From assembly GCA_964530325.1 (NCBI GenBank), contig CAZHAX010000002.1:6400-70399 (forward strand): a stretch of DNA of 64,000 nt. Reading direction: 5' to 3'. Below, piece after piece: positions 2,388-57,664 of this stretch. Source of the DNA: an uncultured Anaerolineales bacterium. GTDB taxonomy: Bacteria > Chloroflexota > Anaerolineae > B4-G1. The translations under genes and the position numbers were made by a program. Each line of letters starts with the position of its first letter. Within the stretch, counting starts at the first letter, position 1. Below the pieces are notes generated by a model. That model saw nothing but the letters and a program-made list of their open reading frames with translations, was not told the DNA's origin and did no database searches.

Positions 2388-3146
2388 GTGCTGAGACTGG
2401 AACATCTCACCAAGGTCTACGACGATGGCACGCGCGCCCTGAACGACGTCAGCTTCGAAGTACCGGATGGGCAGTTCCTGGTCATTATCGGCTTGAGCGG
2501 GTCGGGCAAGAGCACGCTGCTGCGCTGCATCAACCGGCTGATCGAGCCGACCGAGGGGCGCGTGATCTGGAACGGCGTGGACGTTACGGCGGCGCCGCAG
2601 GAGGAGATGCGCTTCATCCGCCGCCGCATGGGCATGATCTTCCAGAGTTTCAACCTGGTCAAACGGTCGAAGGTGATCACCAATGTGCTGGCCGGCCGGT
2701 TGGGGTACACGAACCCGGCTTTGAGCCTGCTCAATCGCTTCTCGAAGGAGGACGAGGAGCTGGCGCAGCGCAGCCTGGCGCGAGTGGGCATCGCGGACCA
2801 GGCCTACAAGCGGGCCAGCGAGTTGAGCGGCGGGCAGCAGCAACGGGTCGGCATCGCCCGGGCGCTTGTACAGGATCCTGAGCTAATGCTGGTGGACGAG
2901 CCGGTCTCCGCTCTGGACCCGGCCACTTCTCACTCGATCATGCGCTACCTGCAGGAGGTGAACGACAAGGACAAGGTGACGATCGTGTGCAGCCTCCACT
3001 TTCTCAGCCTGTCCCGCGCCTACGCCGACCGCATCGTCGCTCTCAAGGATGGGGAGATGGTCTTCGACGGGCCTCCCAAGGAGATCGACGAAGTGCGCTT
3101 CCGCGAGATCTACGGCGAGGATGCCGAAGAGGTGGAGATCAGATGA
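2388..3146 (+). CDS. phnC: Phosphonate ABC transporter ATP-binding protein
   Basis: Walker A GLSGSGKS, LSGGQQQRV, VDEP, SLH; GRLGY motif typical of PhnC; RBS AGGAGG. Confidence 0.92.
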   Translation: MLRLEHLTKVYDDGTRALNDVSFEVPDGQFLVIIGLSGSGKSTLLRCINRLIEPTEGRVIWNGVDVTAAPQEEMRFIRRRMGMIFQSFNLVKRSKVITNVLAGRLGYTNPALSLLNRFSKEDEELAQRSLARVGIADQAYKRASELSGGQQQRVGIARALVQDPELMLVDEPVSALDPATSHSIMRYLQEVNDKDKVTIVCSLHFLSLSRAYADRIVALKDGEMVFDGPPKEIDEVRFREIYGEDAEEVEIR

Positions 3147-4999
3147 CCAAGAGCCCTAGGTCTAAAGCGCGCAATATTGGCTTCATCGCCCTCGTCGTCA
3201 TTGGTGTTCTGATCTATGCCTACGGGTGGCAGGCCACTGACATCGACCTCGACGTTGCCCAGGACGAGGGCCGCCAGGAGCGGGTGGTTCGAGCCCTGCG
3301 GGGCCTGCTGAACCCTATTCTATTCGAGCGGGACACCGAGAGCGAAGTGGCCTACGCCTACTTCCTGGTGCCCTGTACGGACGAATCGCCCGAACAGCCT
3401 GACGTGGTCGAGGGAGAGCCGTACGTAGAGCTCACGCCGGACTGCGGCGAGGCGAGCGATCTGATAACCGTCGAGGTGTTCGGCTTTCGGCCGTACAGTG
3501 ATGGGTACATACGCTGGACTCCACCGGGGCGCTCGACGCAGACGCGGAACAGGTTTCGCACGGATGGGGACGGACATTTCCGATCTAGCGAGCTTAGGGT
3601 CCCGACCGCCAGCGAGAGCGACGAGCTGCAAGTGATCGAGGTGGAGGTGCAGTGGCCGGTTGGAGCGCCAAGGCCGAGCGAGGCGCTTACAACCACCATT
3701 GAGCGCATGATCGAGACGATCTTCCTGGCGCTCATGGCGACGACGCTCGGCCTGGTAGTGGCCATCCCGGTCAGCTTCCTGGCTGCCTTCAATCTTATGC
3801 GCCCCATCCGCAAGCCGCTGGGCAGCCTCCTGGCAACGCTGCTGCCGCTGCTGCTCTATGCCTTGTTGATACAGAGGCTGAAGGCGCTGGGAGCGCCCGA
3901 CGTGCTGGTGGATTGGTTGTCGCTCAGGCCCCTGATCGAGCAGGCGTACAACTTCGGCAACATGGGCTGGATCGGCGCCGGCATCCTCCTGGTTCTGGCG
4001 GCCGGATCATACGTCATCATCTTCAGGCTGCTGCCCAACCCGCACGACGTCTCAAGGCGAGGCAAGACAGTGCGCTACCTGCGCCTGGCGCTGGGGGCAA
4101 GCTCCCTCCTGACTGGAGCGGCGATTGCGTCTGGCGTCGGGAACCAGCTCGCTATCGCCGTCAGCGGCGTCCTGGGCGGCGTGTTGAGCAGCGTTGTGGG
4201 CACCGTATCTACCTTCGTTGTGCTGATGCTGCCCGGCGTCACAGGGCTGGTGTTCGCTGTTGTCCTTGGCACTCTGCTCAGTGGCCTGGTCGAGTCGCTC
4301 GTCGGTAGGCTCCAGGGCACAGCGGCTCGCCGCGCCCTTGGCCTCATGCTGGGAGCTGCTGCGGGCGGCCTGCTTCTCTACCTGGGCTACACGGCGATCT
4401 TCAACTTCTACAACCCGGGGGATCCGATGCCCCTCCTCTGGGAGATCACAGCCGCTGGCGGCGTCCTGGGTGGGATTGGCGGTCTCGTGCTTGGGGCGGA
4501 CCACTCGCTGCCTCTCGGCCTGATCATCTACTACGTAGTGCGTACTATTCTCAACGGTCTACGGTCGATCGAGCCTCTGATCATGGGCATCGTCTTCGTC
4601 ATCTGGGTGGGCATCGGTCCCTTCGCCGGCGTGCTCGCTCTCGCTCTCCACTCGATCGCCGCGCTGGGCAAGCTCTACTCAGAGCAGGTGGAGAGCATCG
4701 ACCCCGGACCCATCGAGGCGATCACGGCCACCGGCGCGACTCGCCTGCAGATGATTCGCTATGGCGTAGTGCCTCAGATCGTGCCGCCCTACATCGCCTT
4801 CACGCTCTACCGCTGGGACATCAACGTGCGCATGTCGACTATCATCGGCTTCGTCGGCGGCGGCGGCATCGGCTTTGTGCTGCAGCAATGGATCAACCTG
4901 CTGCAATACCGCGAGGCCGGGGTCGCCGTGCTGGCGATCGCCATCGTCGTCGCTGCGCTTGACTACGCCAGCGCGAAGGCGCGGGAGAAGATCACCTAG
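3143..4999 (+). CDS. phnE: Phosphonate ABC transporter permease, expanded (618 aa) with extracellular domain and inserted TM bundle
   Basis: ATGA overlap with the phnC stop; IETIFLALMATTLG...PVSFLAA and LRSIEPL...GKLYSEQVE...RWDINVRMSTIIGFVGGGGIG PhnE motifs. Confidence 0.88.
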   Translation: MTKSPRSKARNIGFIALVVIGVLIYAYGWQATDIDLDVAQDEGRQERVVRALRGLLNPILFERDTESEVAYAYFLVPCTDESPEQPDVVEGEPYVELTPDCGEASDLITVEVFGFRPYSDGYIRWTPPGRSTQTRNRFRTDGDGHFRSSELRVPTASESDELQVIEVEVQWPVGAPRPSEALTTTIERMIETIFLALMATTLGLVVAIPVSFLAAFNLMRPIRKPLGSLLATLLPLLLYALLIQRLKALGAPDVLVDWLSLRPLIEQAYNFGNMGWIGAGILLVLAAGSYVIIFRLLPNPHDVSRRGKTVRYLRLALGASSLLTGAAIASGVGNQLAIAVSGVLGGVLSSVVGTVSTFVVLMLPGVTGLVFAVVLGTLLSGLVESLVGRLQGTAARRALGLMLGAAAGGLLLYLGYTAIFNFYNPGDPMPLLWEITAAGGVLGGIGGLVLGADHSLPLGLIIYYVVRTILNGLRSIEPLIMGIVFVIWVGIGPFAGVLALALHSIAALGKLYSEQVESIDPGPIEAITATGATRLQMIRYGVVPQIVPPYIAFTLYRWDINVRMSTIIGFVGGGGIGFVLQQWINLLQYREAGVAVLAIAIVVAALDYASAKAREKIT

Positions 5000-24006: not shown

Positions 24007-27000
24007 CTACTGCAGCTTGTCCTTGATGGCTGCCTGTCGCGGCCACCAGCCGGTGTAGTTGCTCATCACCAACGGAAGGAAGGCGAAGTTCGTTCGCAGC
24101 GTGGCGTTGATCTCAAGCGGGCCTCCCAGCCGGTCCTCTACGACAACCTGGCGCGGAGTGAGCCCCGCATGCGGGAACTCGTGCACGAAGCGCCCGTCCG
24201 TGTAGGCGATGATACGATAGGAGTCGGGCGGCGCCAACGGCGCCCGAGCCCAGGGCCCGGTATCGCCCGGTACGAACTCGAGAACGAGACCGACCGTCCT
24301 TCGCCCGCCTGGCGGCATGTCCGGCAGGGCGAAAGAGGCCCAGTCACTGCCCTGCGCGGCTGTGGGCACGGTGGAGGAGGTCAGCGTCACTCCAGACGTG
24401 AAGGCGACGGTGATGAGGTTGCTCTTGGCGATGTAGTCACCCTGGTTGAAGACGCCGACGTCGACCGCAGCCTGGTTCAGCACATTGGGCGCCACTCCGT
24501 CGATACGGCGGCCCGTCGTCGTATCGGTCACCGCCTGGACCGTGTAGGAGACCACCAGGTTCGCTCCGTGCACCTCGACCGTCTGCAGGTTCCCCGTGTC
24601 TGTGTAGACCTGGGCGAAGTCGTCCGTATACGTTATCACCGGTGCGTAGTCGATCACGAACGTGCCGCTGCCGTCGATCGCAGCTTTGGATCGGAGGACC
24701 ACGAACAACTCGCCCTGGCGCTCCCCGTTCTCCAGCCAGGGCATCTGGCTGGCGTCGAGCGTGGCCGATACAGGCAGCGTGAACTCCACTTCTGTGCCGC
24801 CTGAGACCGTGCTGGTCACGAACGATACCGGAGTCAGGGCGCTGAAGAGCGCGGTTCCCGTGGAGACATGGCCGACGGCCAGCTCGGCCTGCAGGGCAGC
24901 CGCCTCGGCGGCGTTGGCCAGCCCTGCCTCGATCGGGGTGGTCCACCCAGGGAGCAGATCCTCCAGCTCTAGGTTGATCGCCTGGCCCCAGACGGTCTGC
25001 ACGTCGCAGTAGCCGTGGGAGCCGACGCCGATCTCGGCAGCCGGTACCTCGAAGTAGGCCGGCAGGCCGTCTGCAGTCACGGCGAATTCGATCTTGTGTA
25101 CCTCGCCCACGTCGGCGAAGGCCGGGTCGACTTCGACGTCGTAGTACCACACCGTGCGCCAGGCATCGGTCACGATAGCCTGGTGGAGGAAGGGGAAGTC
25201 GAAGAAGAGCGGCTCGATTGACATCGTCTCCGTCACGCTGCGGGTGGTGACAGTGATGCCGGAGGGGGCAGTCGGCGTGATGATCAGATTGGTCAGCGTA
25301 ACGCCGTGGTTGTTCCGTATCTCCAGCCGGACCTGCGTCTCCTCTCCGGGAGCGACGCGGGACCACAACAGGTCGGGCCCGTGGCGGCCGCCTACGTAGA
25401 CGGTCGCGGCCATGTCGCCGAAGCCGTACGACTTGATGAACGGGTCCCAGCCCACGCAGCGCGGGTCCCAGGGATCCTCGATGCGCAGGAAGTGGTAGAC
25501 CTCGTCGTCGAAGGTGGCTACGAGAACAGGCTCTACCGCCTTGTTCACCTGGGCGTCAGCCGAAAGGCCGAAGACCGCCTGGACGTGGGTGTCGTAGACC
25601 TCGTATCTGCTGGGCCCCACTGCCTTCTGGTGGTAGACGAAGCGCGCCCCATCATCGATCTTCATCACACCCTCGCGGTGGAAGTCCGGGTAGGTGCTCA
25701 GCGTGGTGCTGATAAGCAGGCCCTCACGGGCCTGGCTCTCCAGGTACTGCTGGAAGTAGAGGTAGTCGTAGGCTGGGACGGTGACGACTGTGATCAGATC
25801 TGTGTCCGTGAGGTAGCCCTGCAGGTGGAGCGAGTCCCAGGAGCTCTCCCAGTCGCCGTACATTGGCAGCAACTCGAATCCACGTCCGCGGAACATGCCC
25901 TGGGCGATCAGCGTCTCGTCCTTCTGGAGAGGGTCCATGGCCGGGTCGAAATCGGACCATGTCTTCAGGTAGAGCTGCAAGTCCGCTCCCTCTCGGCAGG
26001 GCAACTCCAGCACACGCACCTCGCCGCGCCCGTCGTCATCGCGATCCACCTTGATCTCGAAAGTGGTGTTGACGACGGCGTGATACTCAGGCGGCGGGAA
26101 GGGGACGATATCGTAGAAGACGGTGCGCAACTCCATTTCCTGCGGGCGATCCCAGATGTCCTGGTAGGCCACGCGGGGCATCTCGTGGGGAACCGGGATG
26201 TGGATCACGCCACTGGCGAGATACTCGTGGTAGGGGATGGGGTGGCCGCCCAGGTTGGTGTAGACCGAGCCGCCCGAGCCATCGAGTACCAGGCTGGGGC
26301 TGATCGGGTCGCTGGCGAAGGACACCGTGCGGCTGAGAAGCTCGTGGCTGAACAGCCCGTAGCGGACCGCGGGCTCCTGGTAGTCGTACCCCGGCAGCGG
26401 CCCAAAGTCCCAGACCATCGTCAGCGCCGGAAGGAGGATATCTCCCTCGGTGGTGACGGTGATGTACTGCTCGTAGCCGGGCGGGATAAGCACGGAGTTG
26501 GTGAAGCCGGGCGTCGTCGTGAAGCTGCCGCTATAGGTGTAGACGTGTCTGGGGCCGTTCTCCCAGGTGTTGAGACTGTAGAAGGTGCCGGCGGCGATCG
26601 TCGTCGCCCCATCTATCTCGTCGGGGAGCGGGTAGACGGGTGCCGGTGTTTCGTAGAAGAAGACCTCGTTCAAGGCCCACAGCGTGTCCGAGAGAGAGTC
26701 TGTCGTGCTCGCGCCCCAGGCGTCTGTGATCACCTGTGGTACCAGCCTTTGGTCGTCTACGTCGACGATGGGGGATATGAGCGCGACCACGTCCGTGACC
26801 ACTATCGACTTGGCCCCGGTCTCCTCCTTGTTCTCCAGAGTGAGAGCGATATCGAAATAGCTGCCGTCGCTCGATAGCGGGTAGATGCCGTCGAGCTCGA
26901 TGTCCCTGTCCCCCACCAATCGGGCCGCCATCAAGGCGTCGATCTCAAGCTCATTGCGGACCACGTGGCGCGGCAATCCTGCCGGGTGCAGCTCAGTCGT

Positions 27001-28413
27001 CCAGTAGGAGTCGACGTAGTGGGCAACGGCGGTCGATACGAGCGCGGCGCCCGCGGTGCCGGAGGGTGCCTCGGTGTAGGCGACATAGCTGAAGTCCGTG
27101 TCGCCGGGAGATACCGCGGCGGCAGTCCAGACGATCGTCGTCGTTCCGTCCGGGTTGGCGACGAGCGAGTCCGGGGCAGGGGAGAAGGAAGAGAGTGTCG
27201 TCGAGAAGCCCTGGTGAAGCGTCTCAGTGATCACGACTTCGGCCAACGGGCCGTCCCAGTAGTCCTTGAAGGTGGTGGTGATGGCGATGGGCACGCCGGG
27301 CTCGTAGGCCGGGATCGTGCTGCAGCCGGCTGCGTCCGTGTATTGCTGGCACAGCGTCCCGTAGATGCCACCCCGCTCCCCCATCGCCCAGAGCAGTGCG
27401 TCCAGCACCTGAGGGTGGTGGTTGATATCGTCAGAGGGATGGCCGTTGAACAACACCACCCGCCCGTCTCCAGGCGTCGCCAGGCCGATGGCCACGGAGC
27501 CGGGCTGTGACGTGTCCGCGAACGTGGCGATGGCCGTTATGCCAGCCGTCGCCATGATCGCCGGCTCGTCGAGGACGTAGGTCGTCTGTGAAACCCAGGA
27601 GAACGTGAGCGGATGATCCGGCAGCAGCACGTTCAACTGTCCCTCGTTCGAGGGGTGGGTAACGCGTGTGCTCAGGTCGACGGTGCCGGCAGCGACCAGG
27701 CCGGCTGCCTCCACAATGTAGGCGCCGTTCGACTGCGCGTATAGGAAGCCGCCGGCCTCTACGAAATCGCGGATGGCATCGAGGCCGGCGCTTCCCAGCC
27801 CGGCCGCCACGTCGTCCGCGTATCCGATGCGCATGGCGGGCAGGATAAGGATGTCGTAGTCATCCAGGTCAGAGAGGATCTGGGTTTCCGTGAGCGTGTC
27901 GAAGTAGGGGCAGCCCTGGGGGGTCTCTTCGCACCACAGGTAGACCCGGAAGAGCTGCTCGAAATCGCCCTCCTCCCAGACGACCAGTTGATCGTAGGGA
28001 TCGGTCGCGGAACCATAGAAGATAGCCACCTGCCGCGGATGGAGGGCCAGGGAGCGGCCGACGGTGAAGGACGCTGTAGCGAGAACGGAGTTGAAGTCAC
28101 CGCTCAGCGGGCCGAGCACGGCGCCCGGAGCGTAGTCTGCCGCGTCCACGGTGGCCGTCACCGCCGTCCAGGCCAGGTCCGGGTGATCGTCGTGATGCAG
28201 TGCGCGCCACAGCTCCTTGTAGGCGTTGCGGCGCTCGACGACGCCGGTCTGCCCGGCGCCCAGGGGCGTCAGCTTCTCTCCTGCCGGGAATGCGTAGTCG
28301 CCTGGCGCAGCGCGCAGCGGTCTGGCCAGGGACACGAGAACCAGGGCGACAGCGCAGGCGGCCAGACCAAGCGTCAGGAATAGGCGCAGCGAGCGATTCT
28401 CTAATGTGCTCAT
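24007..28413 (-). CDS. Large secreted protein of unknown function (1468 aa): GATase-like domain, DUF11-like Ig domains, C-terminal FLPLVM tail
   Basis: Signal peptide; LDDYDILILP...DAIRDFVEAGGFLYAQSNGA class-I GATase-like fold; acidic beta-rich body; RBS AAGGAG. Confidence 0.7.
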   Translation of the reverse strand: MSTLENRSLRLFLTLGLAACAVALVLVSLARPLRAAPGDYAFPAGEKLTPLGAGQTGVVERRNAYKELWRALHHDDHPDLAWTAVTATVDAADYAPGAVLGPLSGDFNSVLATASFTVGRSLALHPRQVAIFYGSATDPYDQLVVWEEGDFEQLFRVYLWCEETPQGCPYFDTLTETQILSDLDDYDILILPAMRIGYADDVAAGLGSAGLDAIRDFVEAGGFLYAQSNGAYIVEAAGLVAAGTVDLSTRVTHPSNEGQLNVLLPDHPLTFSWVSQTTYVLDEPAIMATAGITAIATFADTSQPGSVAIGLATPGDGRVVLFNGHPSDDINHHPQVLDALLWAMGERGGIYGTLCQQYTDAAGCSTIPAYEPGVPIAITTTFKDYWDGPLAEVVITETLHQGFSTTLSSFSPAPDSLVANPDGTTTIVWTAAAVSPGDTDFSYVAYTEAPSGTAGAALVSTAVAHYVDSYWTTELHPAGLPRHVVRNELEIDALMAARLVGDRDIELDGIYPLSSDGSYFDIALTLENKEETGAKSIVVTDVVALISPIVDVDDQRLVPQVITDAWGASTTDSLSDTLWALNEVFFYETPAPVYPLPDEIDGATTIAAGTFYSLNTWENGPRHVYTYSGSFTTTPGFTNSVLIPPGYEQYITVTTEGDILLPALTMVWDFGPLPGYDYQEPAVRYGLFSHELLSRTVSFASDPISPSLVLDGSGGSVYTNLGGHPIPYHEYLASGVIHIPVPHEMPRVAYQDIWDRPQEMELRTVFYDIVPFPPPEYHAVVNTTFEIKVDRDDDGRGEVRVLELPCREGADLQLYLKTWSDFDPAMDPLQKDETLIAQGMFRGRGFELLPMYGDWESSWDSLHLQGYLTDTDLITVVTVPAYDYLYFQQYLESQAREGLLISTTLSTYPDFHREGVMKIDDGARFVYHQKAVGPSRYEVYDTHVQAVFGLSADAQVNKAVEPVLVATFDDEVYHFLRIEDPWDPRCVGWDPFIKSYGFGDMAATVYVGGRHGPDLLWSRVAPGEETQVRLEIRNNHGVTLTNLIITPTAPSGITVTTRSVTETMSIEPLFFDFPFLHQAIVTDAWRTVWYYDVEVDPAFADVGEVHKIEFAVTADGLPAYFEVPAAEIGVGSHGYCDVQTVWGQAINLELEDLLPGWTTPIEAGLANAAEAAALQAELAVGHVSTGTALFSALTPVSFVTSTVSGGTEVEFTLPVSATLDASQMPWLENGERQGELFVVLRSKAAIDGSGTFVIDYAPVITYTDDFAQVYTDTGNLQTVEVHGANLVVSYTVQAVTDTTTGRRIDGVAPNVLNQAAVDVGVFNQGDYIAKSNLITVAFTSGVTLTSSTVPTAAQGSDWASFALPDMPPGGRRTVGLVLEFVPGDTGPWARAPLAPPDSYRIIAYTDGRFVHEFPHAGLTPRQVVVEDRLGGPLEINATLRTNFAFLPLVMSNYTGWWPRQAAIKDKLQ

Positions 28414-44069: not shown

Positions 44070-47000
44070 CTACGGGCCGCCGTATCCCCGAAAGATGAGG
44101 ATCAACCTGACGCGGCACGGCTCCGCCACCACCCACGCCGGCCGTTCAAGTAGTAGTCCCGTCCCATCCTCCAAGAAGGCCACGGAGTAGTGGGGCAGTT
44201 GCAGTGGGTCGGCGGGCAGCTGCAGCGCGTAGGTCACCGTGATCTGCCCGCCGGAGACGATGCTCCCTGCCCAATCGACTGCGTCGTCCGAGGCGGCTGC
44301 GCTCCCTCCCCCCGCCCAGACCAACGAGCCCGGCACGTACTCGGCGGTCGTGGGCAACGAGATCGCTACCGTCGCGCTCACCGCGGTCGCCGGCCCGGCG
44401 TTCGCCGCGGCGAGCGCGCAACTCACAACTGTCCCCGGCCGTGGCCGCTCCGGCTCGCACCACAGCGCCGAAGGGGATAGGTCCGGCGCGCCGATGCGCA
44501 CCACCGCGCCCCGGTCGAAACCTATGGAATGGTCATCCAGCCGCAGCCGGGCCGTGTTCGTGATCTGCGTGCCCGCGGTGCCCGTCAGCACCGCCGCGTA
44601 GGTCACCGTCACTCCCTCCCCCGGCCCCAGCTGCCCTGTCCAGCTCACCCGCGTCGTCGGCGGATCGTACGTCGCCGGCCCGGCCAGGCTTCCCGGCAAG
44701 ATCGTCGTGCTTGCAGGCAGGGTGTTCGAAAGCGACGCTGTCACTGTCAACGGGCCGTCGTTGCTCAGGAGTAGGGTGTAGGTCACAGCATCGCCGCTGC
44801 CCATCGCCGGCCGATTGGGGGAGAATGTCGAACCCCCTAGCCACGATAGCCACCCGACGGCCTGCTGCATCACCGCCGGACGCTCCGCCTCCGCCAGCGT
44901 CTCGAAGGGGAAGGAGAGGAAGACGGCCCTGTGATCCCCCTCTTCCCTCGAGAGCGCGATCGCCCGCCGGCCCTGATCGCGGAACGACACAGCCGTGCCC
45001 GGCCAGGGCTCGACTGCGTCCGACCAGTTGCGGAAGGGGTAGTCCAGCTCGTACGGTCCCAGCCGGTCGCCGGCCGGGTCGCCCACCACGCCTGTAGCGC
45101 TTGTCGCTGTGATGTCCTCCGCGAACGAAAGCAATCCCAGGCAGCGCCGGCTGAACGCCGAATCGCCGTGGAAGTACAGGAAGTCCTGTGACGAAAGGAA
45201 GAGGCGGCCTCCCTCTTCGAGGTAGCTCTCCAGCCAGCCGAGCTGCTCGCTCGTCACCGGTCGGTACCAGTCGTACCCCGTCCACCAGACGACGATCGGG
45301 TAGCGGGCCAGGATCTCGGGGTATGGGCCAACGTCCCAACCCGACCCGGTCGCCGGATGGGACTCCCAGACGTCATACGGCAGCCCTGCCGCACCGAGCG
45401 CCGCCTCGTACTTGGGGCGCTGTTCGTACCACCGGTCGTCGTCCACCAGCAGGATCGGTGCCGGCGCCTTCGTCGTCAGCGTGGCCGTCTGGACAAGCGT
45501 GGGCGAGAGAGTGGACTGGGCGGTGACCGTCACCTCGTCGCGGGCGTCCAACGCTGTGCTGATGGGAACCGTCACGCTGATCACCACGTTGTCGGACGTA
45601 CAGGGGCTCAGTGTGAGAGCGGGCGTGCTCAGCTGCGTGCTCCACGAGTTGCCCGAGAGCGTCAGTGTGAACGCGTCGCTGCTGCCGCTCTGGCCAACGT
45701 GGCGCAATCGCAGCGCGTGGGTGACGATGCTGCCTGCTACGCCGATGCCTGTCTGCTCAGCAGGGCTCAGCTCGAAGCCGACAGCCGCCGGCTCGGCGGC
45801 CAGCCAGTCGAGCGCCGTGCTCATGATCTCCTGGCGGCCCGCCCGGCTCTCTATGGCCTCGAACCCGAAGGATAGGTAGATCACCTTGTAGGGCAGGCAG
45901 GTGCCGATACTCAAGGCCCCACATCCGCCTTCCCGGTAGACGAGAGCCCCGGCCGCGCTGTCGGGATCGAAGGGAGCCACCACGTCCGGCGAGAACTGAT
46001 TGTCCGCCCCGCCGGGTCCGGCGATCGTGATCGTCCGCCCGGCGAAGAGGCTGCCCTCCGCGCCCTCCAATACCCAGTCATCGGCGTTGTCCTCGACGAG
46101 TTGGGCTTTCAGGTAGTCCCGGTAGTACGGAGCGTAGAAGAAGCCCGTACCCCCGTCGTCCAGGTAGCCCACATCCTGCCCGCTCAGCAGGAGCCGTCCG
46201 CCGGAGGAGAGGTGGCCGGTGATCGCCGACTGGGCCCCAATGGACCCAGGGGCGTCCTCCGGAGCGCTCCAGACGACGATGCCGTAGGGCGTCAGGTCGC
46301 CTGCCTCCGGTACGTCGCCCGGGAGCGACTTGACCACCCACTCGTCGTAGGTATATGCCAGATCGTCGAGCGCCTCCTGGTAGTAGCCGATCTGGCTGTC
46401 GTAGTCCCAGGCGCCGCTGTCGACGAGTAGGATCGAAGGCGCCGCGGGCAGGGCGAGGGAGACGGTCGTTGCCTGGCCGGCCGTGATATATGCCGTGGCT
46501 GTGAGCACCCGGTATCCCAGCTGGCTGGCCCGGACTACGTAGACCCCCTCCGGCGGCTTGAATCTGTACGAGCTGGCGGTGGCCGTGAGCGGGGTGCCCT
46601 CGAGCGTGATCGTGGCCGTGAGCGGCGCGCCCGTGGCGGCGGCGGTGGCGTTTGCCTGTAGCGTCCCCGTGGGCAGCGCGCTCAGCGAGAAATCGGCCAC
46701 GCTCACCGTATCCGTGGCCACCCCGATACTGCTGATCGCACCGGACAAGTGGCCGAAGGCGGAGGCGTTCAGGTCGTAGGTCCCGGGAGCGATGGCCATC
46801 GAGTAGAGCCCGGCACCGTCAGAACTTGCACTGCCCCCTCCGCCCTCGCCGTGGGGCGTGGCGATGACCAAGGCGCCGGCGATCGGCTGGCCAGTGCCGT
46901 ACGTCGTGACCGTCCCGGAGATGTAGCCGGGATGGGTGACGCTCGCCAGCGCGGCAAAGACATCTATCCGCCCCCAGCCGGAGTCGTTGTTGGGCACCGG

Positions 47001-48386
47001 CGAGCCAAGGGGCACGGCTGTGCTGGTGATGATGTGATAGGTGTCGCTGATCGTCAGCGCCGGGTTGGCCGAAAGCAGCAGCGCGCTCAGGCCGGCGACG
47101 TGCGGCGCAGCCATCGACGTGCCCTGCTTCGTGCCGTATACGCCGCCGGGCAGGCTGGAGCGGACGCCGACGCCCGGAGCGGCGACGTGCGGGCGTATCT
47201 CACCCCAGGGCGAGGGGCCACGGCTGGAGAAGCTGACCACGTCATCGTCCGAGTCTGTGGCTCCCACGGCGAAGGCCTCTGGCAGGGCGGCCGGCGAGCC
47301 GACCGTGCCCTCGAGCGGCCCGTCGTTGCCATTGGAGAAGATGGCGACGATGCCGGCGACCCGCAGGGCCACGATGTCGGCCCGGAACGTGGTCAGGTAG
47401 CCGTTCGAGCTACCCCAGGAGCAGTTGACGACGTCGGGCGCGCGGCCCGGGTCGCCGCCGGGGGCCAGCAGCCATTCGAAGCCGGCGTGGATCCAGGAGT
47501 CCCAGCCGTGGCCGGTGCTATCGAGGACCTTCAAGGCGATCCACTTGGCGCCGGGCGCCACGCCAATACCGGACTGTCCCACCGCTGTGCCCAGCGTGTG
47601 TGTGCCGTGGCTGTGATCGTCCATCGGATAGAGCGTGCCGTTGACTGCGTCGTACCAGTTGCCGCTGTGCACGTGCGAGCCGTGGGGGTTGTAGCCCCGA
47701 TAGTTGGCCTGCAGGTCCGGGTGAAGCCAATCAACGCCCGTGTCCATTCCGGCGACCGTTGTTCCCGTGCCGGATATACTGAGCGAGGCCCACACCTCGG
47801 GTGCGCGTACCTGGGCTATGTTCCACTCCACCGCCGAGGCGCTGGAGCTGACCAGCGATTCCGTCGTCTCCCTCTCGTCCAAGATCCAGCGGCGGTAGTG
47901 GTCGAGGCGGATCGTGGCTATGGAGCGGTGCTGCGCGAGCGCCCGGATTAGTGAGGGGCGGGCCTCCAGAGCGAGTCCGTTGAAGATCCAGAACGACCTG
48001 AAGGAGCGGACGAGGCCCGCGGCCCTGGTCGCCTCCAGGAAGCCGATCAGCTCTGACTGCGACCGCGCTGCTGTAGTCTGCAGCGCTTCTACCGCGCGCC
48101 GAGCGCTGTCTTCGGCGTCCGTCCCGCGGGAACTCGCCTCTTCCGGGTCTGCCTGCTCGCGGAGCTCGACGATGACCCGGAGCTCGTCATGCTCGCGCGA
48201 CCTAGCCAGCGCCCGGACCAGCTCGGGAGCGAGCACGCCCCCCGGCGGGTCAGGCTGAGTCGCTGCGTCGCTCGCCGGGGTTGGCGGGTCGCGCGCGGGG
48301 GGAGGCGGGGGTTCGCCCCCGCTGGCGCTGGCCCCGGTAGCCAGCAGGAAGAACAGACAGGCCAGCCAGCGAGCACTCCTCTTCAC
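44070..48386 (-). CDS. Large secreted S8 subtilase: prodomain + catalytic domain + carboxypeptidase-regulatory-like, GATase-like and DUF11 modules (about 1438 aa)
   Basis: GTG start with signal peptide; triad GMDTG, HSHGTHT, GTSMAAPH; DUF11-type GDAVTYTLLLSNDG. Confidence 0.92.
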   Translation of the reverse strand: MKRSARWLACLFFLLATGASASGGEPPPPPARDPPTPASDAATQPDPPGGVLAPELVRALARSREHDELRVIVELREQADPEEASSRGTDAEDSARRAVEALQTTAARSQSELIGFLEATRAAGLVRSFRSFWIFNGLALEARPSLIRALAQHRSIATIRLDHYRRWILDERETTESLVSSSASAVEWNIAQVRAPEVWASLSISGTGTTVAGMDTGVDWLHPDLQANYRGYNPHGSHVHSGNWYDAVNGTLYPMDDHSHGTHTLGTAVGQSGIGVAPGAKWIALKVLDSTGHGWDSWIHAGFEWLLAPGGDPGRAPDVVNCSWGSSNGYLTTFRADIVALRVAGIVAIFSNGNDGPLEGTVGSPAALPEAFAVGATDSDDDVVSFSSRGPSPWGEIRPHVAAPGVGVRSSLPGGVYGTKQGTSMAAPHVAGLSALLLSANPALTISDTYHIITSTAVPLGSPVPNNDSGWGRIDVFAALASVTHPGYISGTVTTYGTGQPIAGALVIATPHGEGGGGSASSDGAGLYSMAIAPGTYDLNASAFGHLSGAISSIGVATDTVSVADFSLSALPTGTLQANATAAATGAPLTATITLEGTPLTATASSYRFKPPEGVYVVRASQLGYRVLTATAYITAGQATTVSLALPAAPSILLVDSGAWDYDSQIGYYQEALDDLAYTYDEWVVKSLPGDVPEAGDLTPYGIVVWSAPEDAPGSIGAQSAITGHLSSGGRLLLSGQDVGYLDDGGTGFFYAPYYRDYLKAQLVEDNADDWVLEGAEGSLFAGRTITIAGPGGADNQFSPDVVAPFDPDSAAGALVYREGGCGALSIGTCLPYKVIYLSFGFEAIESRAGRQEIMSTALDWLAAEPAAVGFELSPAEQTGIGVAGSIVTHALRLRHVGQSGSSDAFTLTLSGNSWSTQLSTPALTLSPCTSDNVVISVTVPISTALDARDEVTVTAQSTLSPTLVQTATLTTKAPAPILLVDDDRWYEQRPKYEAALGAAGLPYDVWESHPATGSGWDVGPYPEILARYPIVVWWTGYDWYRPVTSEQLGWLESYLEEGGRLFLSSQDFLYFHGDSAFSRRCLGLLSFAEDITATSATGVVGDPAGDRLGPYELDYPFRNWSDAVEPWPGTAVSFRDQGRRAIALSREEGDHRAVFLSFPFETLAEAERPAVMQQAVGWLSWLGGSTFSPNRPAMGSGDAVTYTLLLSNDGPLTVTASLSNTLPASTTILPGSLAGPATYDPPTTRVSWTGQLGPGEGVTVTYAAVLTGTAGTQITNTARLRLDDHSIGFDRGAVVRIGAPDLSPSALWCEPERPRPGTVVSCALAAANAGPATAVSATVAISLPTTAEYVPGSLVWAGGGSAAASDDAVDWAGSIVSGGQITVTYALQLPADPLQLPHYSVAFLEDGTGLLLERPAWVVAEPCRVRLILIFRGYGGP

Positions 48387-48396
48387 AGCACAAACG

Positions 48397-48511
48397 ATTA
48401 TATCAGAAAGAGGGCGTTCGCCCAGGGGGTGGCGTCCGGGTTGGTGTGGCCCTGCCGGCGTCCGGTAGGGGCAAGGCACGCCTCGCCCCTACGGCGTCGT
48501 TCTGCTATAAT
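48397..48511. promoter_or_regulatory. Back-to-back extended -10 promoters (subtilase / methyltransferase)
   Basis: Minus strand TG-A-TATAAT at 48405-48397; plus strand TG-C-TATAAT at 48503-48511, followed by RBS GGGAGG. Confidence 0.65.
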
Positions 48512-48528
48512 CCACACGGGAGGCACGA

Positions 48529-49182
48529 ATGAGCGCTGTGTTCATGCGCGTGCTCGAATCGACGCCCGACCGCTACGACGCCGTGATGAGGGCGCTGACG
48601 CTTGGACGGGTCGAGCGGAGCTACGATCGCCTGGCCGCGCGCCTCGAGCCGGGCTGGCGCCTGCTCGACGTCGGCGCCGGCACCGGCGGGCTGGCATTGC
48701 GTGCGGCGGCGCGAGGCTGCCAGGTCTTGGCTATCGACGTCAACGCTGGGATGCTGGCAATCGCCCGGGGCAAGGGGGACGCGGCGGGCCTTGCTGGCCG
48801 CGTGGAGTGGCGGGAGATGGGCGTGGCGGAGGTCGATAGCCTCCCTGCAGCCGGCTTCGATGCCGTCTCTGCCGGGCTCTGTCTGTCTGAGCTGTCCGCA
48901 GACGAAAGGCGCTACTTTCTCGGTCAGGCGCTCAGGCTGCTGCGGCCGGGAGGGCTGCTGCTGCTGGCGGACGAGGTAGCGGCGCCGGGGCTGGCCGGGC
49001 TGCTCCTCCGCGCGGTCCGCGTCCCCCTCACCGCGCTCACCTGGCTGCTGGCTGGCAGCACGACGCGGGCCGTTCCCGATCTGGAGGGGCTCGTGAGGAG
49101 GACAGGGCTTGAGATCGTGGAATCCCAGTGTGGGCTGCTGGGCGGGTGGCAGGAGCTGGTGGCCAGGCGGCCTAAGGATTGA
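48529..49182 (+). CDS. cpaM: Class I SAM-dependent methyltransferase, CpaM (corrinoid-protein-associated)-like
   Basis: MRVLESTPDRYD..MRALTLGR N-terminus, LLDVGAGTG, DVNAGML, AGLCLSELS.DE; HgcAB-like fusion gene 1.2 kb downstream. Confidence 0.68.
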   Translation: MSAVFMRVLESTPDRYDAVMRALTLGRVERSYDRLAARLEPGWRLLDVGAGTGGLALRAAARGCQVLAIDVNAGMLAIARGKGDAAGLAGRVEWREMGVAEVDSLPAAGFDAVSAGLCLSELSADERRYFLGQALRLLRPGGLLLLADEVAAPGLAGLLLRAVRVPLTALTWLLAGSTTRAVPDLEGLVRRTGLEIVESQCGLLGGWQELVARRPKD

Positions 49183-50071
49183 GGACCTGCACGGTCGGCC
49201 GCAGCCCCAGATCATCGATCAGCCCGTTCAGTTCTATGTCGTTCAGCCGCCGGCCCTTGCCCGCGTAGGCGGTCAGAGCCGCCTCGAGAGCGTTTGTGCC
49301 GAACGAGCGGCCGTCGTAGCGCGGGGTGGTCGTGACCACTTTGTGCACCCCCCGGGACGCGAGCAGCCCGACGTTCTCCTCGGTCGTCGTGTTCGTGACC
49401 ACCGTCTTGCCGGCCAGGTCATTCGGCATGTACTTGCGCATGAAAAGAAAGTCGCCGGCGAGCAGATCGGCCTCCTCGAAGCAACGGGTATGCTTCGGCT
49501 CCTGTTCCGCCCCGCCGCTGCCGTAGAAGATCATGCTCATAGGGAAGAAGCTGACGATGGGCAGGAGGACCCGCGCCAGCCTGCGGTAGCTTTCGATGCC
49601 ACGCACCGGGATGGGGAGGCCCAGGCCGACCATCAGATCGCCAAAGACCACCTCATCCGCCGCCTCGGTGACCGCCTCGGCCAGCCCCAGCCTGTCGACG
49701 GCCATCGGCATGAAAGCCTTCCGGAAACGGGGCCGGCCTCCCAGATCCGCTTCGGCCAGTTCGAAGACCCGCCGCTCGAGCGTGTGCTTCAGTCCGCGGC
49801 CGTCGACGACCGGCGTGTGCCGCACGCCCCGTACCAGCTTGAGCGCGGCGCGGAGGGGATACTCGCGCTGACCCAGCCGCAGGTAGAGATCGGCGCCGCC
49901 TACACCGAGCGCATCGACCTGTCCGTCGAGCTCGGCAAAGAGCCGCTGAGCGGCCGGCACGTCGCCATCGGTGCCTATCCGCTCGACGCTGACCGGTGTG
50001 CCGGCGAGATTGGCGACCACGCGCTTATCGCGCGCTGAACTACCCAGGCTTACGCTGACCGCTCTCTTCAT
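49172..50071 (-). CDS. Conserved protein of unknown function (family often labelled quinate 5-dehydrogenase, 299 aa)
   Basis: MKRAVSVSLGSS.RD, ERIGTDGD, DGQVDALGVGG, VVDGRGLKHTLE, GKTVVTNTTT, GRSFGTNALEA; TATAAT at 50104-50099. Confidence 0.75.
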   Translation of the reverse strand: MKRAVSVSLGSSARDKRVVANLAGTPVSVERIGTDGDVPAAQRLFAELDGQVDALGVGGADLYLRLGQREYPLRAALKLVRGVRHTPVVDGRGLKHTLERRVFELAEADLGGRPRFRKAFMPMAVDRLGLAEAVTEAADEVVFGDLMVGLGLPIPVRGIESYRRLARVLLPIVSFFPMSMIFYGSGGAEQEPKHTRCFEEADLLAGDFLFMRKYMPNDLAGKTVVTNTTTEENVGLLASRGVHKVVTTTPRYDGRSFGTNALEAALTAYAGKGRRLNDIELNGLIDDLGLRPTVQVLNP

Positions 50072-50140
50072 GGGCGCCCCTTGGGTTCTCCGGGCGGCAT
50101 TATACACCTCCGCGCGGGCCTGCGAAAGCGCCACGGATCT

Positions 50141-50241
50141 ACCGCAGAGAGCGCAGAGATCGCGGAGAAGCCGAAAGCGGCGGGGAGGGGGCAGCCCCGA
50201 AGAGGATTGTCACCCTCGGCGCCCTCTGCGTGCTCTGCGGT
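50141..50241. repeat. 101-bp element bounded by imperfect 27-bp inverted repeats built from three 9-mers
   Basis: Left: ACCGCAGAG AGCGCAGAG ATCGCGGAG. Right (reverse complement): ACCGCAGAG CACGCAGAG GGCGCCGAG. Confidence 0.75.
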
Positions 50242-50266
50242 TGGTGTGTCCGGAGGGGCTGTCTGC

Positions 50267-50295
50267 TTGTGCTCGCCTGGCCCGCAGGCTATAAT
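50267..50295 (+). promoter_or_regulatory. Promoter of the HgcAB-like gene
   Basis: TTGTGC-17-TATAAT. Confidence 0.55.
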
Positions 50296-50352
50296 CATTC
50301 GCGCAGAGGCTGATGCCCGCAGTCGCCGCCTGTTCTGGCTTGTTTGCGTGCA

Positions 50353-51450
50353 ATGATTGACACAGCGCTGCCCCGGCCGCTGTTGTGGCTTGTCACAACA
50401 GCGCTTCGCCTGCTTCCCTGGCCTACTCGCACAGGGCTGCGCCGTGTGGGCAGCCCGGGTCCGTCGTCCTCTGTCGTACTCACGGCCAACTTCGCGCTGA
50501 CCGTGCAACGGGTGAGGCGGGCGCTGCGCGGCCTCGATGCCTGGCTCCTGGTGGCGAACTCGCGCGGCATCAACGTCTGGTGCGCCGCCGCCGGCGGCCA
50601 TCTGACGACGCACGACGTCATTTCCTCGCTGAAGACGACCACCGTTGCCGATAGTGTATCGCACCGTCGCCTCGTGCTGCCCCAGTTGGCGGCCGCCGGC
50701 GTGGAGGCGGACGAGGTGCGGCGGCGAGCCGGCTGGGAGGTGGTCTGGGGGCCGGTCGATGTGCGCGATCTGCCCTCGTTCCTGCAAGGCGAGGAGTCGC
50801 CCCAGATGCGCCAGGTCGAGTTCGGGCTCCTCCAGCGCGTCGAGATGGCCGTGATGTGGGCCGCTCCGCTTTCTCTGCTCGCCCTGGCCGCAGCGCTCGT
50901 CTGGCCAGAGGGGGCGCTGCCGCTCCTGGGTACCATCTGGGGCCTTGCGCTGGCCGTCTATCTCGCTTTCCCTCTATATGAGCGGCTCGTCGCACGCACC
51001 GGGTTGGCCGGCTTCCTGACCCTGTTTGGAGTGTTTGCCGTGGCAGGGGCCGCGATGGTTGACATACTGGGCGGCAACCTGGCCTGGCCGTTCCTGCTCC
51101 GCTGGGGTGGGATTGGCTTGGCTACGGTCTTCATGCTCGGGATCGACCTGGCCGGCAGTACTCCGCTCTACAAGAGCTGGGTCCAGCCCGAGCGCCGCTG
51201 CACTGTGGCCCTGGCTGTGGAGCGGTGCACAGCCTGCGGTCGCTGCGCCGAGGTCTGCCCGCGAGGGGTGTTCGTCGTGGAGCGGGTTGCCGCCCTGCGC
51301 CAGGCCGATCGCTGCGAGCAGTGTGGGGCTTGCATCGTCCAGTGCCCGGAGGACGCACTCAGCTTCGCCGGCCCGGGCGGTGAGAGCGTCGGTGCCGACA
51401 TCATCCGCAGGCACAAGCTCAACCTGCTGGGGCGGAGGGGCCACGACTAG
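50353..51450 (+). CDS. Fused HgcAB-like protein: CdhD/HgcA-type corrinoid domain + TM helices + 2x[4Fe-4S] ferredoxin (about 365 aa)
   Basis: TGL.RVG.P...S.V.LTANF.LT, WLLVANSRGINVWCAAAGG, RRLVLPQLAA.GV, WGPV; hydrophobic helices; CTACGRCAEVCP and CEQCGACIVQCP. Start could be TTG 50344. Confidence 0.9.
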   Translation: MIDTALPRPLLWLVTTALRLLPWPTRTGLRRVGSPGPSSSVVLTANFALTVQRVRRALRGLDAWLLVANSRGINVWCAAAGGHLTTHDVISSLKTTTVADSVSHRRLVLPQLAAAGVEADEVRRRAGWEVVWGPVDVRDLPSFLQGEESPQMRQVEFGLLQRVEMAVMWAAPLSLLALAAALVWPEGALPLLGTIWGLALAVYLAFPLYERLVARTGLAGFLTLFGVFAVAGAAMVDILGGNLAWPFLLRWGGIGLATVFMLGIDLAGSTPLYKSWVQPERRCTVALAVERCTACGRCAEVCPRGVFVVERVAALRQADRCEQCGACIVQCPEDALSFAGPGGESVGADIIRRHKLNLLGRRGHD

Positions 51451-55460: not shown

Positions 55461-55489
55461 TTGACGCCTCATCCCCTTGCCTGTAGAAT
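55461..55489 (+). promoter_or_regulatory. Leaderless-type promoter
   Basis: TTGACG-17-TAGAAT, 8 nt before ATG 55498, no SD sequence. Confidence 0.7.
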
Positions 55490-55497
55490 ACGCGCGT

Positions 55498-56346
55498 ATG
55501 GGGCGGCCACCTGTTGTCACCTTGACGACCGACTTCGGGATGGCCGACGGCTATGTGGCGGCGATGAAGGGGGTCATTCTCCGTATCGCCCCGGAAGCGC
55601 ACCTGATCGATATCTCGCACGAGATTGAGCCCCACCGCGTGCGAGTTGCAGCTTTCGTGCTCTACGCTGCCTACTCGTACTTCCCCGACCACACAATTCA
55701 CATCGTGGTCGTAGACCCCGGGGTGGGCGGTGACAGGCGGGCTATCGCCTTCGGCACGCCCGCGGGCAGTTTTGTTGGTCCGGACAACGGCGTCTTCACC
55801 TACATAATGGCACGGGAGGAGATTCAGCAGCTGGTCGAGTTGCGAGAGCCAGGCTACCGGCTCGATCCGCTGAGCGGCACGTTCCATGGCCGAGACCTCT
55901 TCGCGCCAGCTGCCGCCCATCTGGCCACAGGCACGCCACTGGGCGACCTGGGTCCTTCAGTCGACGATCCCGTTACTCTCGCACTACCGCTATTGGAGGT
56001 CGGCCCGGCGTCGCTGAAGGGGGAGGTGATGCACGTCGATCGCTTCGGCAACGCGATAACGAGCATCGGCCGGCTGGCATGGCGCGGCGCGGAGCTGGTG
56101 CTCGATCCGGCCTTCGGGCGGGGCGGGCCGTCGGGAGGAGCGGCCTTCTCCGCTCAGGGCGCCGTGACGGACGCTGCGGGCTGGGAGATCACCGGCATCT
56201 GCCGTACGTATGCTGAGGCAGACCGGGACCAAGTGCTGGCCCTGGTCGGCAGCGGGGGATATCTGGAGATCGCCATGCGTGAAGGGAGCGCCGCCCGGGA
56301 GTTACGTTTGAGTGCTGGAGCTCCCGTGGTGGTTCGCTATTCATAG
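55498..56346 (+). CDS. DUF62 SAM hydroxide adenosyltransferase (chlorinase/fluorinase superfamily)
   Basis: [45 protein letters not shown]; Asp-Arg-His triad present. Confidence 0.9.
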
Positions 56347-56386
56347 GCAGTCTGGAGCCGTGCTCCGGATCTGTTGGAGGGCTGCG

Positions 56387-57664
56387 ATGGAAGGATTCGC
56401 AATCGAAGGTGGGCATCCTCTCTCTGGTACGATCGTACCGAGCGGGAACAAGAACGCTGCCCTGCCGCTGCTGGCGGCCTGCCTGCTCACGGACGAGCCG
56501 GTGACGCTGCACAACGTCCCCGCCGTGGGTGATGCGGAGACGATGGGCGAGCTGCTAGCCCACGTCGGGGCTTCAGTGGAGAAACGGGATGCGAACACCT
56601 GGCGCGTGACTGCGGCGAAGATCTGCACTACCGACCTTCCGGCGGAGCTATTTGGCAGCATCAGGGGCTCGATCACTCTCGCCGGACCTATGCTGGCCCG
56701 GGCGGGTTCGGTGCGGGTGCCCCGCCCAGGCGGCGATGTGATCGGCCGGCGCCGGGTGGACACGCACTTTCTGGCCCTCAGCGGGCTTGGGGCGGAGATG
56801 GACGATGGTTCCACTTTCCGCCTGCGGGGCAAGCGGCTGCGCGGCGCCGACGTCCTCCTCGACGAGGCGAGTGTGACCGCCACAGAGAACGCGATAATGG
56901 CCGCCGTGTTGGCCGAAGGTACCACTACCCTGCGCAATGCCGCCTCTGAGCCGCACGTGCAGGATCTCTGCCACCTGCTCTGCTCGATGGGTGCCAAGAT
57001 AGGTGGTATTGGCTCGAACACGCTGACCATACACGGAGTCGATCAGCTCAAGGGGTGCGAGTATACGCTTGGACCCGACTACATGGAGGTTGGCAGCTAC
57101 ATCGCTCTGGCAGCGGTGACCGGAGGGGAGCTCCTGATCAAGGGCGCGGCGCCGCAGCAGCTATCGATGGTTAGTATCGTCTTCGAGCGCCTGGGCGTGC
57201 GCTTCGAAGCGCGCGGGCAGGATGTCTTCGTTCCCACGGAGCAGCCCCTGGAGATTGTCCCTGATATCGGAGGGGCGATCCCATCCATATACGATGCCCC
57301 TTGGCCCGCCTTTCCTGCCGACCTGATGAGCATCGCCATTGTCGTCGCCACGCAGTCTTCTGGGACGGTCCTCTTCCACGAGAAGATGTTCGAGAGCCGT
57401 CTCTTCTGGGTCGACAAGCTGATCTCGATGGGTGCGCGAGTGATCCTATGCGACCCGCACCGCTGCGTGGTGCAGGGGCCGTCGCCGCTTCACGGCGACG
57501 AGGTGGATAGCCCGGACATCCGGGCCGGGATGGCGCTGCTCATCGCCGCGCTGTGCGCCGACGGCAGGAGCGTCATCCGGAACATCCGGCAGATCGACCG
57601 CGGCTACGAAAGGGTGGAGGAGAAGCTGCGCTCGGTGGGGGCGAAGATAGAGCGCATCTCCTGA
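56387..57664 (+). CDS. murA: UDP-N-acetylglucosamine 1-carboxyvinyltransferase, Asp-type
   Basis: [62 protein letters not shown]. Confidence 0.95.

Follow-up and report, generated by a model that had tools for sequence, protein, structure and literature searches.

The locus considered here raises the question of whether a protein that carries the parts of the mercury methylation system in one chain is itself a mercury methylase and, if not, where it would obtain a methyl group and to what it would pass it. The gene lies at 50353..51450 (+) in a 64,000-nt stretch of contig CAZHAX010000002.1 from an uncultured Anaerolineales bacterium, hereafter the window, and all coordinates are positions in that window unless another contig or locus is named. 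Its product of 365 aa (plus stop) joins a corrinoid domain of the HgcA type, a membrane domain and an HgcB-like ferredoxin domain. The protein is complete and intact and belongs to the HgcAB-like fusion family NF043039, which is known and curated, and its gene forms a two-gene module with cpaM, the gene of an S-adenosylmethionine (SAM)-dependent methyltransferase. The window protein is not a new kind of protein or system, and its host phylum is an expected one.

Family membership was determined with curated hidden Markov models (HMMs). The protein scored 400.5 bits on NF043039 "HgcAB-like fusion protein" (cutoff 285, E 8.8e-120), with residues 11–337 spanning profile positions 2–350 of 350, and it retained all 41 columns that are invariant in a 106-sequence family alignment. 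It fell below the cutoffs of the HgcA model NF040863 (165.9 bits, cutoff 275, only residues 26–197 aligned), the HgcB model NF040864 (49.8 bits, cutoff 99) and PRK04165, the model for the gamma subunit (AcsC/CdhE) of the corrinoid iron–sulphur protein (CFeSP; 79.7 bits, cutoff 306, last ~125 profile positions only). These scores bear out the original prediction for this DNA, which had called the product a fused HgcAB-like protein rather than a true HgcA.

A neighbour-joining (NJ) tree of the corrinoid domain was built from 82 sequences (40 fused proteins, 40 HgcA, the window protein and CFeSP 2h9a) over 165 columns with 200 bootstraps. The HgcA references were database fragments recovered with a partial HgcA-like query, and the tree included only proteins taken from the database; several of them carry NCBI's HgcA name, and NVWCAAGK was present in all six shown of the 40 used. 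Within the limits of NJ and database references of this kind, the window protein grouped with the fused clade in 169 of 200 bootstraps and HgcA formed a separate clade in 197 of 200, as expected from the predicted identity. The window protein was on average 65 % identical to the fused proteins, against 37 % for HgcA and 26 % for CFeSP. The predicted Chloroflexota host was likewise upheld, the nearest named relatives of two separate genes being of the Anaerolineae/Thermoflexia type.

The partner gene cpaM was located upstream of the fusion gene, at 48529..49182 (+). It encodes a class I SAM-dependent methyltransferase of 217 aa that scored 244.2 bits (cutoff 180) over residues 3–214 on NF043040 "corrinoid protein-associated methyltransferase CpaM", with Pfam matches to Methyltransf_25/11. 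In the window it lies on the same strand as the fusion gene and 1.17 kb upstream of it, with an opposite-strand gene between the two. The original prediction had missed this conserved partner.

A CpaM homologue was found near the fusion gene in 77 of 80 species loci. It stood directly upstream on the same strand in 73, and in three more with a small gap or overlap at the ORF (open reading frame) boundary; the other four loci are cut at a contig end. The association was also examined in reverse, by searching the CpaM alignment against metagenome contigs, which gave 31 CpaM-grade loci and 49 generic-methyltransferase loci. Of the CpaM-grade loci, 27 extended for more than 240 nt past cpaM; HgcAB-like sequence lay directly downstream in all of these (the copy at locus L115 being interrupted) and in none of the 49 generic loci. 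Pairwise distances of CpaM and of the fusion protein were correlated across 75 loci (r = 0.84; permutation maximum 0.23), and the nearest relatives of the window CpaM came from the same loci as those of the fusion protein (L001–L003). No third conserved neighbour emerged when the genes within 5 kb were clustered all against all.

The two proteins were also found joined. Metagenome contig Ga0315296_10023111 (positions 2413–4352, locus L116) encodes a 551-aa in-frame fusion of CpaM with an HgcA-like corrinoid and membrane domain; after it comes a separately encoded ferredoxin of 95 aa, HgcB-like and with a tail rich in Cys (GCGCISC). Its CpaM part scored 219 bits on NF043040, above the cutoff, while its HgcA-like part, with the cap NVWCSARGGHFTAEE, stayed below the cutoffs of both NF043039 (251 bits) and the HgcA model (216 bits). 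In cap motif and scores this protein is intermediate between the fused family and HgcA, and it may be a third architecture of the HgcA superfamily. It suggests an extension of the CpaM link beyond the fused family. The reciprocal adjacency, the co-divergence and the in-frame fusion of CpaM at the N-terminus of the corrinoid domain together point to a physical complex of CpaM and the corrinoid domain.

At the interrupted locus L115 (5740–7518), the HgcAB-like gene ends after about residue 93 and is followed by genes that resemble, by sequence, an AbrB/MazE-type antitoxin and a MazF/PemK-type toxin; it appears to be a disrupted copy of the cpaM–hgcAB-like module.

Motif I of the window CpaM reads LLDVGAGTGG, so that the usual Cys of the family's GCGTG is Ala and GxGxG is retained. 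The nearest characterised relatives of CpaM were methyltransferases of the UbiE/MenG/UbiG and ArsM types, with weak scores only, and a PDB sequence search returned only generic class I methyltransferases. The conserved cysteines of the CpaM family are that of motif I and one other; there is no Cys pair like the one that holds As(III) in ArsM.

The reading frame of the fusion gene runs from the ATG at 50353 to the stop at 51450, with an in-frame TTG also at 50344. A public gene call by JGI (P0001; locus L081, 1353–2357) gives a protein of 334 aa beginning at Val32, which drops the invariant or near-invariant family residues T16, R19, P22, P24, G28 and L29; because the JGI start omits these conserved residues, the ATG at 50353 is the better start. 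The relatives P0035–P0048 (318–341 aa) appear to be N-terminally truncated in the same way.

An AlphaFold2 (AF2) model of the fusion protein, built on 106 family sequences, was confident (pLDDT 89.9, pTM 0.87). The best Foldseek match was the published HgcAB model 9a0b_A (E 2e-11, 32 % identity), followed by the B12 domains of CFeSP at a root-mean-square deviation of 2.5–2.7 Å over 128–130 columns. The corrinoid-binding domain, Rossmann-like and of the CFeSP/HgcA type, occupies residues ~24–150 (50422..50802, +), as also indicated by the Pfam match to CdhD (PF03599) at residues 24–142 and by the match to the CFeSP large subunit 2h9a in a PDB sequence search (E 1e-11). The membrane domain follows at residues 159–269 (50827..51159, +), as delimited from hydropathy and the AF2 secondary structure (DSSP). 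The original prediction of about four to five transmembrane (TM) helices was right as to the domain, and the number in the model is four, at residues 159–181, 185–204, 218–239 and 245–269. Given the four helices and the K/R-rich loops that hydropathy analysis places at 205–217 and 270–284, we infer that the corrinoid and ferredoxin domains are both on the cytoplasmic side. R162, W169, W196 and G268 of the membrane domain are invariant in the family, E164, P172 and F206 are near-invariant, and the motif D265-L-x-G-S-T-P-x-x-K274-S is strongly conserved.

The cap-helix region GINVWCAAAGGHLTTHD (residues 72–88; 50566..50616, +) contains Cys77 (codon 50581–50583), the presumed lower axial cobalt ligand. 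The motif N(V/I)WC(A/S)(A/S/G)GK, the high-stringency form for HgcA (PMC10087281), is not matched by the window protein, which reads NVWCAAAG(G): NVWC and its Cys are kept, and GK is absent. The original prediction had noticed the loss of GK and described it as a replacement by AGG; alignment of NVWCAAGKG in HgcA with NVWCAAAGG gives two substitutions and no insertion. It had also treated this change and the missing C-terminal Cys pair as features of this protein. Both are present, and both are traits of the whole family. The GG form NVWC(A/S/G)(A/S)xGG was found in 119 of 120 relatives (one had no motif match) and GK in none of the 120, and the position of the Lys of GK is Gly in all 110 aligned relatives. 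Around the cap, G72, N74, V75, W76, C77, G81 and G82 do not vary within the family and 109 of 110 members carry H87, whereas true HgcA reads NVWCAAGKGTF at these columns. The diagnostic contrast is LDTxG(I/V)NVWCAAGKGTFGT(D/E)E in HgcA against ANS(R/H)GxNVWCAAxGGHLTxHD in the fused family.

The dicluster ferredoxin domain occupies residues 283–340 (51199..51372, +), where Pfam finds Fer4 twice. Both motifs are complete (C292-x2-C295-x2-C298-x3-C302-P and C321-x2-C324-x2-C327-x3-C331-P), and the cysteines of the whole protein are at 77, 283, 292, 295, 298, 302, 321, 324, 327 and 331. The predicted single frame with an HgcA-type corrinoid domain, Cys77 in GINVWCAAAGG and two CxxCxxCxxxC clusters therefore stands, at 50353–51450. 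No Cys was found beyond residue 331, so that the HgcB-type C-terminal pair is absent, again as predicted, and a check of the Cys positions found no radical SAM CxxxCxxC motif. The conserved tail ADIIRRHKLNLLGRR (residues 348–362; 51394..51438, +), also without Cys, occupies the place of the HgcB Cys-pair tail; it is a short helix at 348–354 and then a disordered end in the model. Family-wide, a conserved RRxKLNLxGxR follows the second cluster in place of the Cys pair. R352, K355 and R362 of the tail are invariant, and P348 (Ala in the window protein), L356, N357, L358 and G360 are near-invariant. Past the second cluster motif no Cys is conserved in the family, 12 of 75 loci having one within the next 45 residues.

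In the first cluster motif, the second Cys (C295; Cys292–Cys295 at 51226–51237) is retained in all 39 relatives with at least 58 % identity, and its position is Ala or Val in 65 of 70 more distant relatives. Among 75 species loci with both motifs readable, the position is Ala in 52, Val in nine, Cys in seven and another residue in seven. Most of the fused family therefore has a three-Cys first cluster, either site-differentiated or [3Fe-4S], the Chloroflexota subclade having the full set. In HgcB both clusters have four Cys (PMC11588087).

A protein search gave 1575 matches at E<=1e-5 among 8000 candidates scored, and 471 of 185,579 species-representative genomes were found to encode a relative. 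Carriers include Chloroflexota, Gemmatimonadota, Acidobacteriota, Binatia, Desulfobacterota, Aminicenantes, Thermococcaceae, Bathyarchaeia and others; the closest relatives among these genomes are from uncultured Anaerolineales and Thermoflexia metagenome-assembled genomes (MAGs), at 64–68 % identity. True HgcA is also present in Chloroflexota, an Anaerolineae HgcA being among the HgcA database matches. Published work has dealt with the fused family since 2015 and treats it as a clade paralogous or sister to HgcA (PMC4646819; 10.1101/2022.11.21.517362; PMC10087281). Pyrococcus furiosus and Methanococcoides methylutens, the two carriers tested in culture, produced no methylmercury (MeHg), as the original prediction had stated (PMC4646819, PMC5893877).

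These observations can be combined in a mechanism. Work with purified HgcAB showed that SAM converts Co(I) to methyl-Co(III), a Cys thiolate being the ligand, and that the electrons come from the clusters of HgcB (PMC11588087). In the fused family, the ferredoxin domain would likewise give low-potential electrons to the corrinoid to form Co(I). CpaM would then bind SAM and methylate Co(I), yielding S-adenosylhomocysteine and a methyl-Co(III) whose lower ligand is the Cys77 thiolate. The methyl group would finally pass to an acceptor that approaches the cofactor from the cytoplasmic side, over a conserved face of the membrane domain that includes R162, E164, F206-P-x-Y209 and D265-L-x-G-S-T-P-x-x-K274-S. 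We give this mechanism as a whole, comprising reduction by the ferredoxin domain, loading of Co(I) by CpaM and SAM and transfer to an acceptor that is probably not mercury, a probability of about 0.5.

The acceptor of the fused family is probably not Hg(II), because the family has no equivalent of the HgcB cysteines that methylation requires and because the cultures were negative; the HgcB residues reported as necessary are C73, C94 and C95 (PMC11588087). The original prediction had also proposed a methyl carrier for a non-mercury acceptor, and our inference is the same. Since the module has no fixed gene context, a stand-alone accessory job, such as methylation of a soft metal(loid) or of a membrane-soluble small molecule, would fit better than a step in a larger pathway. 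In its most specific form, which we put forward only tentatively, cpaM and the hgcAB-like gene would be a self-contained membrane-bound machine in which methyl groups move from SAM through a class I methyltransferase and a Cys-ligated methyl-corrinoid to a non-mercury acceptor, for example another soft metal(loid) (As, Sb, Se, Te, Sn or Bi, for instance) or a small molecule soluble in the membrane.

Several points weigh against the proposed mechanism. We know of no class I Rossmann methyltransferase that methylates a protein-bound corrinoid, and the Rosetta-stone fusion of CpaM with an HgcA-like protein comes from a single 4.5-kb metagenome contig. Co-transcription of cpaM and the fusion gene has been lost in the window, so that their co-expression is assumed. 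The literature search found no biochemical characterisation of fused-family members or of CpaM, and no paper mentioning CpaM, NF043039 or NF043040; as far as could be seen, the pairing is recorded only in the NCBI family models. Podar et al. state that the MeHg-negative cultures of P. furiosus are no proof against mercury methylation by the enzyme (PMC4646819). Finally, purified HgcAB needs no separate methyltransferase to accept the methyl group of SAM (PMC11588087), and loading may therefore not be the task of CpaM.

This last point is the basis of the alternative that survives best, although we consider it unlikely. The fusion protein would be methylated by SAM directly, as HgcAB is, and CpaM would either modify the corrinoid protein or methylate the substrate or product separately, performing for example the first or second methylation of the same acceptor. 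Such a role would be in keeping with the small-molecule methyltransferases that are the nearest, if weakly scoring, characterised relatives of CpaM, and with its generic PDB matches. The strict reciprocal adjacency, the co-divergence and the natural in-frame fusion point instead to a complex with the corrinoid protein, and CpaM lacks the conserved Cys pair of the ArsM type.

It is less probable still that the protein is a genuine mercury methylase and that the culture tests lacked mercury uptake, the right conditions or expression of CpaM. The cap Cys and NVWC are strictly conserved, the fold matches the HgcAB model, and the caution of Podar et al. about negative cultures applies here too (PMC4646819). 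Yet neither the HgcA nor the HgcB equivalog model accepted the protein, it belongs to a separate clade, C73, C94 and C95 of HgcB are without counterpart (PMC11588087), and two independent cultured carriers were negative (PMC4646819, PMC5893877). For mercury surveys, the window protein is a further clear hgcA look-alike to be filtered out. Judged from the cut-offs of PMC10087281 and the score of 165.9 bits, the original prediction that it would be a false positive in hgcA surveys would hold at moderate HMM stringency and would not hold at motif stringency.

The proposed mechanism was also weighed against a mainly reductive corrinoid enzyme, in which Co(I) would dehalogenate halomethanes or other membrane-soluble electrophiles and methyl transfer would be secondary. 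The built-in ferredoxin domain would be a permanent electron supply for the cofactor, and heterologously expressed HgcAB has been described in a 2026 preprint as dechlorinating CCl4 (10.64898/2026.04.26.720869). We regard this account as improbable: the preprint concerns true HgcAB and not the fused family, and an obligate SAM methyltransferase partner would be left without a role.

The window is unusual in the separation of the pair. The intervening gene, at 49172..50071 (−), encodes a conserved 299-aa protein (the mechanical ORF reaches a GTG at 50134) that is labelled 'quinate 5-dehydrogenase' in some MAGs. It had no match in Pfam, NCBIfam or a PDB sequence search. There were 6773 homologues at E<=0.001; the best 120 had 72–85 % identity and 295–307 aa, and the named ones among them were from Anaerolineales/Chloroflexi. 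An EPSP synthase gene of the shikimate pathway lies 6 kb from this gene, at 56312–57664. The inserted gene was found in none of the 80 species loci. It was present in the same position in L083, where the fusion protein is 71 % identical, and in L084 (70 % identity) cpaM and the fusion gene are still adjacent. Given this presence in the window and L083 and absence from L084 and the species loci, the insertion is specific to one sub-lineage. Among more than 100 informative loci, a gene lies between the pair only in the window and L083.

A putative promoter of the fusion gene, TTGTGC-17 nt-TATAAT, was recognised by reading the sequence at 50267..50295 (+), ending 58 nt before the ATG; an automatic promoter scan had missed it, the −35 hexamer having only three of six matches. 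The hexamers and their spacing are conserved in L083 despite only 71 % protein identity, and this conservation suggests that the fusion gene has its own promoter in the window lineage. Upstream of it, the block TCACCCTCGGCGCCCTCTGCGTGCTCTGCGGTTG (50205–50255) contains three C(T/C)C(T/G)GCG-like repeats and is largely conserved in L083 though the protein is only 71 % identical; it may be a binding site for a regulator. That the module is decaying in the window lineage, the split having uncoupled the genes and left the fusion gene a relic, is hardly credible, even though this lineage, with the window and L083, is the sole case of an intervening gene, because both genes are full length and above curated cutoffs, all 41 invariant columns are kept, and the conservation of the split arrangement and of TTGTGC-17-TATAAT in L083 at 71 % protein identity indicates long-term maintenance.

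Other neighbours were considered and rejected as parts of the system. Genes for MoxR (AAA_3), DUF58 and DUF4129 begin 34 nt after the stop of the fusion gene; they recur only in the close relatives L001, L004 and L084 and are absent from L083 and other loci. A SAM_HAT gene at 55477..56346 (+), with SAM_HAT_N and SAM_HAT_C domains and resembling SAM hydroxide adenosyltransferase/(R)-SAM hydrolase, was found in none of the 80 species loci. In L083 a SAM_HAT gene directly follows the HgcAB-like gene; this proximity probably reflects synteny within the lineage rather than any tie of function to the SAM-dependent module. In the cultured archaeon Thermococcus atlanticus (L085 1394–7760, GCA_054657855.1), the pair has on one side genes for a permease of the CitMHS type, a regulator of the ArsR family and a P-type ATPase with an HMA domain, and on the other a DUF302 gene, which looks like a metal-homeostasis neighbourhood. 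Such a metal(loid) context is not general, with ArsR-like genes in four of the 80 loci and HMA ATPases in two, and is a hint rather than evidence.

An Rfam scan of the whole window found no riboswitch, neither cobalamin nor SAM, the 5′ leader of the fusion gene folds no better than shuffled sequence (z = −1.28), and the window ORFs that were scanned included none for biosynthesis or uptake of cobalamin. The rest of the window is unremarkable chromosomal DNA, with UvrB, LepA, EPSP synthase, ABC transporters and histidine kinases. Two long ORFs, at 24007–28413 (−) and 44070–48479 (−), encode 1468 and 1469 aa and are mutually unrelated (BLASTP E 2); the latter is a subtilase (Peptidase_S8) with CarboxypepD_reg and DUF11, and the former had no Pfam match at E 1e-5. 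A further arrangement was seen in database protein P0338 (218 aa, from a 792-nt ENA contig), where the true HgcA cap NVWCAAGKGTF is followed by a ferredoxin-like CxxCxxCxxxCP with no membrane domain between; it may be a frameshift, a chimera or another architecture.

The window itself adds little beyond its unusual split arrangement, and the lasting value lies at the family level, in the link to CpaM. The fused family was described in 2015, and its strict reciprocal tie to a SAM methyltransferase, together with the natural CpaM–HgcA-like fusion and the methylation of HgcA cobalamin by SAM reported in 2024, makes its function directly testable. Cultured carriers such as P. furiosus and Thermococcus are available for genetics. 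Were the self-contained machine tentatively put forward above to exist, it would represent a biological methylation route so far unrecognised, present in ~0.25 % of prokaryotic species from many phyla of bacteria and archaea, and no class I methyltransferase before CpaM would have been known to load a corrinoid bound to protein.

Among known systems, the window protein is most directly compared with the fused HgcAB of Podar et al. 2015 (NF043039), known from P. furiosus (Q8U2U9), M. methylutens, Kosmotoga pacifica and the OP8/OP9 lineages. It shares with that family the corrinoid domain with cap Cys, membrane domain and dicluster ferredoxin in one chain, the cap NVWCAAxGG(H/L)(L/F)TxHD, the tail RRxKLNLxGxR and a nearby cpaM. 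Unlike most members, the Anaerolineae/Thermoflexia subclade to which it belongs (at least 58 % identity) keeps a four-Cys first cluster, and unlike at other loci, the pair is split by an opposite-strand gene, as seen only in the window and L083. With HgcA and HgcB it has in common a homologous NVWC-Cys corrinoid domain and membrane domain, a 2x[4Fe-4S] ferredoxin as electron donor and SAM as the likely ultimate source of the methyl group (PMC11588087). It differs from them in being a single polypeptide, in GG for GK and HL for TF after the cap, in four predicted TM helices against the five reported for HgcA (PMC11588087), in the absence of Cys73 and the C-terminal Cys pair of HgcB, in its obligate CpaM partner and in its place below both equivalog cutoffs and in a separate clade.

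The large subunit of CFeSP (AcsC/CdhE; 2h9a, 4djd) has a similar B12-binding Rossmann-like domain of ~128 residues at 21–28 % identity. It differs in having Thr at the position of the cap Cys, a TIM barrel, an N-terminal [4Fe-4S] domain and no membrane domain, and in receiving its methyl group from methyl-H4folate. Loading of cobalamin with methyl groups from SAM is carried out by radical SAM enzymes of class B (such as TsrM) and by the reactivation module of methionine synthase, which are mechanistic analogues only. The half-reaction proposed here, in which Co(I) takes the methyl cation of SAM to give methyl-Co(III), would be the same as theirs, whereas their SAM-binding folds are unrelated to that of CpaM, a small class I Rossmann methyltransferase.

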